In this document: in pieces, positions 47,905-48,867 of the stretch | Layout: each line of letters starts with the position of its first letter | How positions within the stretch are numbered: position 1 is the stretch's first letter | Sequence record: PQ471516.1 | DNA length: 64,000 nucleotides | Source of the DNA: Escherichia phage Turkey5 | Direction: 5' to 3' (one strand) | The notes under the pieces: generated by a model | Databases searched by the model: none | The model's input: only the letters and a program-made list of their open reading frames with translations | Told to the model about the DNA's origin: nothing | Position numbers and translations under genes: made by a program

Positions 47905-48867
47905 TTGAAAAAGCTAGATCTAAATGCAATTGCTGATGAAGTACTGGATGAATGTTTTGCTAGTGAAGAAGTCAACGTATTAGAGGCAATTGATGCCGTT
48001 GAAGAAGAACATGATGACCACAAGTTCGAGAAGCCTAACACTGGTATCAGTTTAACTCGTCCTAAAGGTGTAACGAATGAAATGCTCATCCAGGAAGTAC
48101 GTGATGGCATTAACGTTGAAAAGAACATTGACCTTCTAGTACGTTACAACTACCCAATGATTGTTAGTACTGCTCGTAAATGTACATGTTTCATCCCATT
48201 TGAAGATAAGATTTCATATGGTGTTGAAGGTTTAATGCGAGCGATTCATACATTTGATCCTACTAAGAACGTTAAGTTCATTACCTATGCAACATCAACT
48301 GTGTATATGACAATCTATAACGAAAGTGCAGACGCTAACTACTTAGTGCACTTCCCACGTTATATGAGTGTTAACAACATTTATGTGAAACGTTGTGTAG
48401 AAGCGTACCAAAAGAAATATGGTAGGTTCCCAACTCCAGAGATGGTCGCTGAAGAGACTGGTATTGAGATTCAACACGTTAAGAATTGTCTAACCTACAC
48501 CAATACTTATATGGCATTGGATATGAAATTGAGTACTGATTCAGAAAGTACCTTGTCTGACATTGTTACTACAGTTGATCCTGATTACAACTTAGGTGCA
48601 GAAACTATCAGTATTCCACTGGTACAAAGTATTGCAGATATGATGCATAATCTATCTGAAAAAGACCGTGAGTTGATTGAACGTGTACATGGTATTGGTT
48701 CTTGTGCTGAACCAGAAACGCTACGAGAAATCATTGAGAGCGGTTTTGAAGATGAGAAGGGTAAAGTCATTACTGCTCGTTCTTCCTTGCACCGTAAGTA
48801 CTCTGATGCAATGGAACGCCTACGTAAGATGGTTAAGTCCAGAGGTTATGAGTTCGAAGATTTTTAA
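47905..48867 (+). CDS. sigma-70-family RNA polymerase sigma factor
   Basis: Region 2-like GLMRAIHTFDPTKNVKFITYATSTVYMTI; region 4-like LSEKDRELIERVHGIG; TTG start with AGGAG RBS. Confidence 0.7.
   Translation: MKKLDLNAIADEVLDECFASEEVNVLEAIDAVEEEHDDHKFEKPNTGISLTRPKGVTNEMLIQEVRDGINVEKNIDLLVRYNYPMIVSTARKCTCFIPFEDKISYGVEGLMRAIHTFDPTKNVKFITYATSTVYMTIYNESADANYLVHFPRYMSVNNIYVKRCVEAYQKKYGRFPTPEMVAEETGIEIQHVKNCLTYTNTYMALDMKLSTDSESTLSDIVTTVDPDYNLGAETISIPLVQSIADMMHNLSEKDRELIERVHGIGSCAEPETLREIIESGFEDEKGKVITARSSLHRKYSDAMERLRKMVKSRGYEFEDF

Follow-up and report, generated by a model that had tools for sequence, protein, structure and literature searches.

A sigma-70-family factor of Escherichia phage Turkey5 and its possible role as a middle-stage sigma factor

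Published work has already annotated and discussed the sigma-70-family sigma factors of jumbo phages (PMC5259590, PMC7824862, PMC11895373). The paper on phage CBB (PMC5259590) placed the sigma gene in a presumed early region; for CBB and GAP32 it described promoters of three types as well as a gp55-like late factor. The papers on Sharanji, fEgEco12, and phAPEC6 only mention the gene, and literature searches found no functional study of a member of this gene family. Among other phages, gp36 of phiEco32 and gp47 of Salmonella phage 7-11 are sigma-70-family proteins that redirect the host core enzyme to middle or late promoters differing from the host consensus (PMC8948821). Here, we describe the jumbo-phage sigma factor found in Escherichia phage Turkey5 (PQ471516.1), encoded on a 64,000-nucleotide (nt) stretch of DNA that was analysed as a whole (hereafter, the window). 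The Rak2-like ('group 2.2') RpoD-like sigma factors of PBECO4/121Q, phAPEC6, fEgEco12 (g519), Sharanji, RaK2 (ORF244), K64-1, CBB (CBB_513), GAP32, Serratia phage BF, and Yersinia phage Yen9-04 are orthologous to the window gene and share its length, N-terminal motif, and early-region context, with nothing essential being different.

The window is 98.3% identical to vB_EcoM_JNE01 (Asteriusvirus, 356 kb), ∼84% identical to fEgEco12 and Ecwhy_1, and ∼80% identical to PBECO4. At the protein level, the sigma factor shares 99% identity with that of JNE01, 87% with those of the fEgEco12 group, 57% with that of PBECO4, and 31–40% with those of other genera. The orthologues are annotated as RNA polymerase sigma factor in PBECO4, phAPEC6, RaK2, K64-1, CBB, GAP32, BF, Yen9-04, and others, and the nearest GenBank copy (JNE01) carries the label 'hypothetical protein'. 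The gene is thus correctly and ordinarily annotated as a member of a known family, which already figures among the hallmarks of jumbo phages dependent on host RNA polymerase, and this annotation in itself adds little. The question that it raises is how genes are timed in a 350-kb E. coli phage without its own polymerase. To this question the analysis contributes a testable promoter class, a set of residues predicted to determine specificity, and a swap that occurs naturally from one phage genus to another, and we tentatively propose, at a confidence that stops a little short of an even chance, that the protein is the middle-stage sigma factor in a cascade consisting of host sigma-70, the phage sigma factor, and a gp55-like factor.

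Domain layout, DNA-contact residues, and operon of the sigma factor

The gene and the regions of its product are as follows (aa, amino acids; pLDDT, predicted local distance difference test):
47905..48867, + strand: sigma-70-family sigma factor gene (Pfam, PHROG, and PDB matches, AlphaFold, hhalign)
47905..48051, + strand: N-terminal extension, aa 1–49, acidic (15 D/E versus 4 K/R), low model confidence
48136..48324, + strand: region 2, aa 78–140 (Pfam Sigma70_r2)
48385..48573, + strand: region 3, aa 161–223 (Pfam Sigma70_r3, 7.8e-12)
48622..48849, + strand: divergent region 4, aa ∼240–315 (hhalign against RpoS, AlphaFold pLDDT 79–91, alignments)

A sequence-only reading of this DNA had described the product as a sigma-70-family factor with recognizable regions 2 and 4, larger and more canonical than T4 gp55. 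Classification with hidden Markov models agreed with the family assignment. Pfam Sigma70_r2 (35.2 bits, cut-off 24, at aa 78–140) and Sigma70_r3 (45.6 bits, cut-off 25.3, at aa 161–223) matched the window protein and each matched 27 of the 27 family members, PHROG 351 ('RNA polymerase sigma factor') was the sole PHROG family matched (5.5e-47 over aa 1–317), and the significant PDB sequence matches were all sigma factors, with SigB being the best (2.6e-17), followed by SigA, RpoS, and RpoD. The best NCBIfam models were RpoD_Cterm and RpoS (RpoS, 1.3e-23), both far under their cut-offs; the curated RpoD and RpoS cut-offs were missed with 91 versus 354 bits (TIGR02393) and 84 versus 379 bits (TIGR02394), respectively. 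An AlphaFold model built on the 27-sequence alignment (a single-sequence run gave a pLDDT of only 37) contains confident sigma2, sigma3, and sigma4 domains, with low confidence in the first 49 residues, and in the PDB, Foldseek matched it best to sigmaS and sigmaA within holoenzymes. When the 27-member profile was aligned with E. coli RpoS by hhalign, a probability of 99.25% was obtained over 227 columns, extending from region 2.1 to the C-terminus. Judged from these searches and the model, the protein almost certainly belongs to the sigma-70 family and is predicted to bind core RNA polymerase; the description as larger and more canonical than T4 gp55 likewise stands by Pfam, PHROG, NCBIfam, PDB, Foldseek, and hhalign. 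The acidic N-terminal extension may represent a region-1.1-like tail.

As for the two regions named in that description, Pfam confirms region 2 and adds region 3, whereas region 4 emerges from hhalign and AlphaFold only. Pfam Sigma70_r4 left the window protein unmatched even at E≤1 and was reached by only 8 of the 27 family members (best, 3.1e-05), whereas confident helices were modelled in this part at aa 232–248, 252–262, 273–278, and 292–312. Region 4 therefore appears to be present but divergent, and the turn of its helix-turn-helix (HTH) is predicted to hold a 7–9-aa insertion (SGFEDEKGK), in which G280, D283, and G286 are invariant. This G-x-x-D-x-x-G insertion and the N-terminal motif are carried by 26 close homologues. 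When 1.8 billion representative proteins were searched with a profile, ∼20 clusters matched over the full length, and beyond them lies a continuum of >26,000 ordinary sigma factors with core-only matches, indicating that the protein belongs to a small and distinct phage subfamily.

The roles of sigma-70 residues in promoter contact are established, and the corresponding positions were assigned by alignment with E. coli RpoD and RpoS, with the RpoD numbering being checked. D403, F419, K426, F427, T429, Y430, and R584 are kept and R423 is conservatively replaced by K, so numbered in RpoD. The pocket for the −11A is mostly retained (F117, K121, K124, F125, T127, and Y128 of the phage protein), with Y425 changed to V123. 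The melting tryptophans W433/W434 are replaced by S131/T132, and regions 2.3–3.0 show further replacements (R436/Q437 to Y134/M135, T440 to Y138, R441 to N139, H455 to Y153, and E458 to V156). In the helix that recognizes the −35 element, E585 is replaced by S293, R586 by S294, R588 by H296, Q589 by R297, and E591 by Y299. This helix reads A-R292-S-S-L-H296-R297-K-Y299, in which R292 is the retained R584, and all 27 members of the alignment share R292, H296, R297, and Y299. Because of these changes in the −35 and region 2.4/3.0 contacts, the phage sigma factor is probably not a reader of TTGACA, and its specificity would differ from that of host sigma-70.

The 320-aa open reading frame (ORF), its TTG start codon (47905–47907), and its AGGAG ribosome-binding site, all proposed previously, hold in the sequence, and the start position is matched in the relatives. 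An in-frame TAA immediately precedes the TTG, and no in-frame ATG occurs before codon 60. The start codon at the same aligned position is TTG in JNE01, GTG in PBECO4, Ecwhy_1, and CBB, and ATG in RaK2 and EJP2, so that a weak start codon is a recurring but non-universal trait of the gene; conservation of the first 18 residues (MKKLDLNxIxDEVLDECF) among relatives supports the start position. The signals around the gene are as follows:
47894–47898, + strand: Shine-Dalgarno sequence AGGAG, 6-nt spacer to the TTG; kept in JNE01, Ecwhy_1, and PBECO4
44958..44986, + strand: sigma-70 consensus-type promoter (TTGACA-17-TATACT, 11/12), heading the gene run that contains the sigma gene
46633..46661, + strand: nearest conserved sigma-70-type promoter 5′ of the sigma gene (TTGACC-17-TACAAT)
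48872..48897, + strand: intrinsic terminator (11-bp stem, then a T run), ending the sigma operon; conserved in relatives

The sigma gene is the last of a tightly packed + strand run that follows the promoters at 44958 and 46633, and equivalents of the latter are present in JNE01, Ecwhy_1, and PBECO4. A promoter-like site within the gene that precedes the sigma gene (47765–47793) has no conserved counterpart in relatives and was dropped. Because the operon is bounded by sigma-70 promoters and a strong terminator, we infer that the sigma gene is an early gene read by the host sigma-70 holoenzyme.

Three promoter classes and a candidate reader of the middle class

The abundance of host-type −35/−10 promoters noted in the sequence-only reading is evident from the counts: near-consensus TTGACA-N16–18-TATAAT sites (at least 11/12) number 39 on the + strand and 0 on the − strand of the window (2.4 expected), and perfect 12/12 promoters number 13 (0.13 expected). 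In the window, 129 of the 132 ORFs are on the + strand.

A second −35/−10-type class became visible in the whole genome of fEgEco12, which was used as the closest well-annotated relative, its sigma factor being 87% identical with identical contact residues. The pattern G[AG]GACA-N15–18-TAYAAT occurs 18 times on the + strand and never on the − strand (∼1 expected). Among the hexamers paired with TAYAAT at the −35 position on the + strand, TTGACA (49 sites) is followed by GGGACA (10) and GAGACA (8), for which ∼0.5 site each would be expected; single-mismatch variants of TTGACA are scarcer, with 1–3 sites each. The spacer is 16 nt in 17 of the 18 sites, and 16 of the 18 carry a TGn-extended −10, versus 8 of 37 sites of the TTGACA class. 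These sites, hereafter called the middle class, lie mainly at 50–260 kb, where the genome encodes metabolism and replication functions, whereas TTGACA sites cluster in the early regions, and the genes behind them include those for the sliding clamp, gp32, primase, exonuclease, topoisomerase II, nrdD, and the gp55-like sigma factor. At orthologous sites of PBECO4, the −35, TGn, and −10 elements are kept and the spacers have diverged. The window contains a sole member of the class, immediately 3′ of the sigma terminator:
48904..48931, + strand: middle-class promoter, GGGACA-N16-(TGa)TACAAT

The gp55-like late sigma factor is encoded by a separate gene, g336 of fEgEco12 (PHROG 12791; PHROG 234, 1.5e-16). 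This gene (190974–191912) is annotated as a 312-aa 'putative RNA polymerase sigma factor', but its start is probably mis-annotated and the true start would be ATG 191073: the PHROG match runs from residue 36 onward, and this ATG has a GGAGAG ribosome-binding site and sits 3′ of a middle-class promoter (190988–191015). The motif that goes with late genes in this lineage is TAAATA, which in fEgEco12 is situated roughly 10–70 nt 5′ of the start codon in genes for sheath, tube, fibre, baseplate, portal, and capsid proteins. The T4-type late box TATAAATA that had been proposed for the window is at chance level there as an exact motif, with five copies on the + strand and one on the − strand (4.9 and 3.9 expected), and only nine copies exist in the whole fEgEco12 genome; it was dropped as a window statistic in favour of TAAATA, the motif enriched 5′ of structural genes. 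Three of the six TATAAATA boxes in the window (173, 58713, and 59451; + strand) sit 25–45 nt 5′ of orthologues of virion structural proteins, namely those of g420, g551, and g555 of fEgEco12, and these are isolated late genes amid an otherwise early/middle region.

The −35-position motif and the region 4.2 helix of the sigma factor were compared across phage lineages:
Window and fEgEco12: motif G(G/A)GACA; helix ARSSLHRKY
PBECO4: motif G(G/A)GACA; helix SRSSIHRKY
EJP2: motif TGAGA(C/T)A; helix NRCTIHRRY
7t3: motif TGGGA(C/T)(A/G); helix SRTSLHRCY
RaK2: motif (T)TGAACA; helix VRGTLHYKF
CBB and BF: motif (A)TG(A/G)AA(C/T)G; helix SKATLSRRY

Lineages with R292..H296-R297 (window/fEgEco12, PBECO4, EJP2, and 7t3) pair with TG(G/A)GA(C/T)A, those with K..S-R (CBB and BF) with TG(A/G)AA(C/T)G, and that with R..H-Y (RaK2) with TGAACA, whereas TGnTATAAT is unchanged at the orthologous promoters of every lineage compared. 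The CBB/BF motif is the 'divergent −35 TGAAACG' described in the CBB paper (PMC5259590). TGAAACG is not enriched in the window or in fEgEco12. Since the −35 motif shifts where the base-contacting positions of the sigma factor shift, these sequence comparisons support a phage-encoded reader of the −35 element. The hosts of these phages are all enterobacteria, whose sigma-70 region 4.2 is assumed to be essentially identical.

The following cascade may be proposed. Asteriusvirus jumbo phages have no RNA polymerase of their own and rely on the host enzyme. Host RNA polymerase with host sigma-70 would transcribe the sigma gene early from consensus TTGACA/TATAAT promoters; the phage sigma factor, translated from the weak TTG start, would then displace host sigma-70 on the host core enzyme and direct the core to middle promoters of the form G(G/A)GACA-N16-TGnTATAAT. 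These would drive genes for replication and nucleotide metabolism, the sliding clamp gene, four copies of a putative structured RNA (see below), and the gene for the gp55-like factor, which would in turn read the TAAATA late promoters. The middle class is left to the phage sigma factor because early promoters precede any phage protein and late promoters have the gp55-like sigma factor. The more specific form of this proposal, namely that Rak2-like phages have a dedicated middle sigma factor whose divergent region 4.2 (R292, H296, R297, and the hairpin insertion) reads TG(G/A)GACA and whose regulon comprises replication genes, the gp55-like sigma gene, and the four ∼500-nt RNAs, is put forward with somewhat greater reserve.

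Several observations weigh against a phage sigma factor that reads the middle promoters. Literature searches found no experiment on the window protein or any orthologue, the window contains one middle-class site and the class is defined mainly in relatives of 80–84% nucleotide identity, and the co-variation comprises only two or three independent evolutionary events and would fit a separate phage-encoded activator of the −35 region equally well. The residues that read TG and −12T in sigma-70 (H455, E458, Q437, and T440) are absent from the phage protein, which would need other contacts to read these bases, and region 2.4 varies between phage lineages (Y-M versus R-Q), whereas the −10 element is constant. 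A perfect extended −10 such as TGnTATAAT can be used by host sigma-70 without a −35 element. The middle promoters may thus be read by host sigma-70, either alone or with a phage activator at G(G/A)GACA in the manner of T4 MotA/AsiA, and the phage sigma factor would then serve another small regulon or condition, e.g. an RpoS-like role in non-growing cells. The textbook sigma-70 extended −10 in 16 of the 18 middle sites and the four missing contact residues speak for this explanation, as do the presence of RpoS among the best NCBIfam models and an HTH protein gene adjoining the sigma gene in CBB. Although it is the main alternative and has real evidence behind it, we regard this explanation as rather unlikely. 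The −35-position hexamer is fixed at 16 nt and conserved while the spacers diverge, and it differs among phage genera although all hosts are enterobacteria with sigma-70 regions 4.2 assumed to be alike; k-mer analysis of upstream regions yielded no further unexplained promoter motif, and no MotA/AsiA homologue was seen, although no systematic search for them was made.

The remaining explanations concern what else the phage protein might do. It could read the same TTGACA/TATAAT promoters as the host factor and boost or sustain early transcription after inactivation of host sigma-70, which would accord with the extreme abundance of consensus promoters around the sigma gene and with group 1 and group 2 sigma factors being its closest cellular relatives; this is improbable in view of the family-conserved substitutions at four of the five −35 contacts and at the −12/TG contacts relative to sigma-70 and RpoS, and of the insertion in the turn of the region 4 HTH. 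It is less probable still that the protein, rather than working in initiation, shuts off host transcription as a decoy or competitor, either by occupying core RNA polymerase or by binding regulators of the host. The lost tryptophan pair for promoter melting, the strongly acidic N-terminal tail, and a non-ATG start suggestive of low dose would suit such a role, but the −11A pocket residues and R584 are conserved, regions 2–4 are full length across ∼20 divergent clusters, and the recognition-helix residues are invariant within lineages, which points to selection for DNA reading. Finally, the late-type boxes 5′ of the virion-protein genes at 173, 58713, and 59451 could be taken to mean that the protein reads late TAAATA promoters, alone or with the gp55-like protein. 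The dedicated gp55-family factor encoded elsewhere in fEgEco12 makes this very improbable, as does the fact that the late motif has no −35 partner whereas the phage sigma factor keeps a conserved region 4.

If the phage protein is indeed the middle-stage sigma factor, it would provide an orthogonal sigma/promoter pair functional in E. coli, and the sigma cascade of an E. coli phage would have three tiers. Its code could be re-programmable, with R292K/H296S being predicted to shift recognition to TGAAACG, and the middle regulon would take in an unexplored family of large structured RNAs.

Candidate structured RNA and other elements of the window

The middle-class promoter behind the sigma gene is directly followed by an element that may be of more interest than the sigma annotation itself and deserves its own follow-up:
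∼48938..49470, + strand: ORF-less, highly conserved element, directly 3′ of the middle-class promoter at 48904–48931

The ORF-poor 452-nt gap after the sigma gene (48868–49319) is part of this larger element, which the window phage and the PBECO4 clade share at 94–95% identity, versus only ∼80% for the flanking genes. fEgEco12 contains four paralogous copies, each directly behind a middle-class promoter (G(G/A)GACA-N16-TGnTATAAT). Homologues with ∼70% identity, mostly unannotated, are present in 1–5 copies per genome in CBB, GAP32, BF, Yen9-04, and jumbo phages of Erwinia, Salmonella, and Xanthomonas, and homology extends to 7t3; in CBB and BF, the copy examined sits behind the lineage's own version of the middle promoter. 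An alignment of eight sequences yielded 72 base pairs in 14 helices, 34 of the pairs showing compensatory double changes. Paired cells amounted to 96%, versus 82% in shuffles (none of 500 reached 96%) and 39–48% with partners slid, and the covariation score was 0.445, versus 0.175 shuffled and 0.06–0.10 slid. No Rfam family matched the element and a literature search found nothing on it. It is a candidate for a large structured non-coding RNA of ∼500 nt that would represent an undescribed family.

Upstream of the sigma gene lies a co-oriented gene:
47386..47883, + strand: 165-aa product (PHROG 24804, 1.9e-84)

The product has weak similarity to HslV-family peptidases (PHROG 1040, 'peptidase HslV family', 1.7e-07), and its fEgEco12 counterpart is annotated as HslV. 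The HslV-like gene and the sigma gene are syntenic in JNE01, fEgEco12, Ecwhy_1, and PBECO4. Pfam scans of the neighbouring operon genes gave no matches, and their PHROG matches are to families of unknown function only, apart from the weak HslV-like match.

A palindrome, CAGTACTG, had been suggested in the sequence-only reading as the mark of promoters recognized by the phage sigma factor, a suggestion that its distribution does not bear out. It occurs 36 times in the window (0.9 expected), with 27 of the 36 copies lying within ORFs and spread over reading frames, and its core AGTACT occurs 154 times (∼20 expected) in all three reading frames, 15% of the copies being intergenic. Only four or five copies of CAGTACTG lie within the spacer of a promoter; the hexamers of the promoters concerned are canonical (TTGAC(A/T) and TATAAT), i.e. 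these promoters are of the host sigma-70 consensus type. Because it is genome-wide, lies in coding DNA, and is hosted by promoters with canonical hexamers, CAGTACTG is a genome-wide palindrome and does not define a promoter class; it was dropped as a promoter element. AGTACT is the sole outlier among palindromic hexamers in the window (e.g. 610, 1852, 31675, and 61515), its 7–10-fold excess is kept in PBECO4, EJP2, RaK2, and CBB, and it also forms terminator stems in fEgEco12. One guess is that it serves as a site for a DNA-binding or DNA-modifying protein. The early genes in the terminal repeats of fEgEco12 (1–19 and 355–374 kb) have a variant promoter, composed of an A-rich tract, AGTACTTGCAa, N16, and cGTATAAT, that is followed by a conserved leader (gttttacatc..aagggga). 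An ACTTGCA motif considered as a separate element corresponds to this variant early promoter, which is restricted to the fEgEco12 terminal repeats, and was therefore dropped.

Seven tRNA genes (Leu-taa, Gly-tcc, Ser-tga, Ser-gct, Asn-gtt, and two Thr-tgt) are clustered at 30480–35754 (+ strand) of the window, and an eighth tRNA-like match (31790–31868, 33 bits) was obtained with Rfam only. The two tRNA-Ser genes begin directly after consensus promoters with CAGTACTG in the spacer. A group I intron match (Rfam, 95 bits versus a gathering score of 50) was found at 32996–33309 (+ strand), in the 598-nt gap between tRNA-Ser(gct) (32807–32896) and the ORF at 33374.

Comparison with known systems

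The phage sigma factor aligns with E. coli RpoS and RpoD throughout regions 2.1–4.2 at ∼23–24% identity. It differs from them in having no region 1.1, no recognizable region 1.2 helix, and no non-conserved region, with an acidic 49-aa tail instead; W433/W434, the −12 and TG contacts, and most −35 contacts are replaced, and the region 4.2 turn carries an insertion. gp36 of phiEco32 and gp47 of phage 7-11 are, by their descriptions, much more divergent and non-orthologous to the jumbo-phage factor, which keeps regions 2, 3, and 4: gp36 is without region 4 and reads a single element (tAATGTAtA), and gp47 reads GTAAtg-16-aCTA. The gp28 and gp33/34 cascade of Bacillus phage SPO1 operates in another host with unrelated promoter sequences, whereas the late step here would be carried out by a T4 gp55-type factor.

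The present phage group has T4-type core genes, a gp55-family late factor, and a TAAATA-type late motif in common with T4. In T4 middle promoters, a sigma-70-like −10 is retained but the −35 is replaced, and the same holds for the middle class described here. However, the window protein itself is not gp55-like, since it matches PHROG 351 and has no match to PHROG 234. Whereas T4 MotA/AsiA remodels host sigma-70, a complete alternative sigma factor is proposed here for the middle switch, and the motif at the −35 position is G(G/A)GACA at a fixed 16-nt spacing rather than a MotA box.

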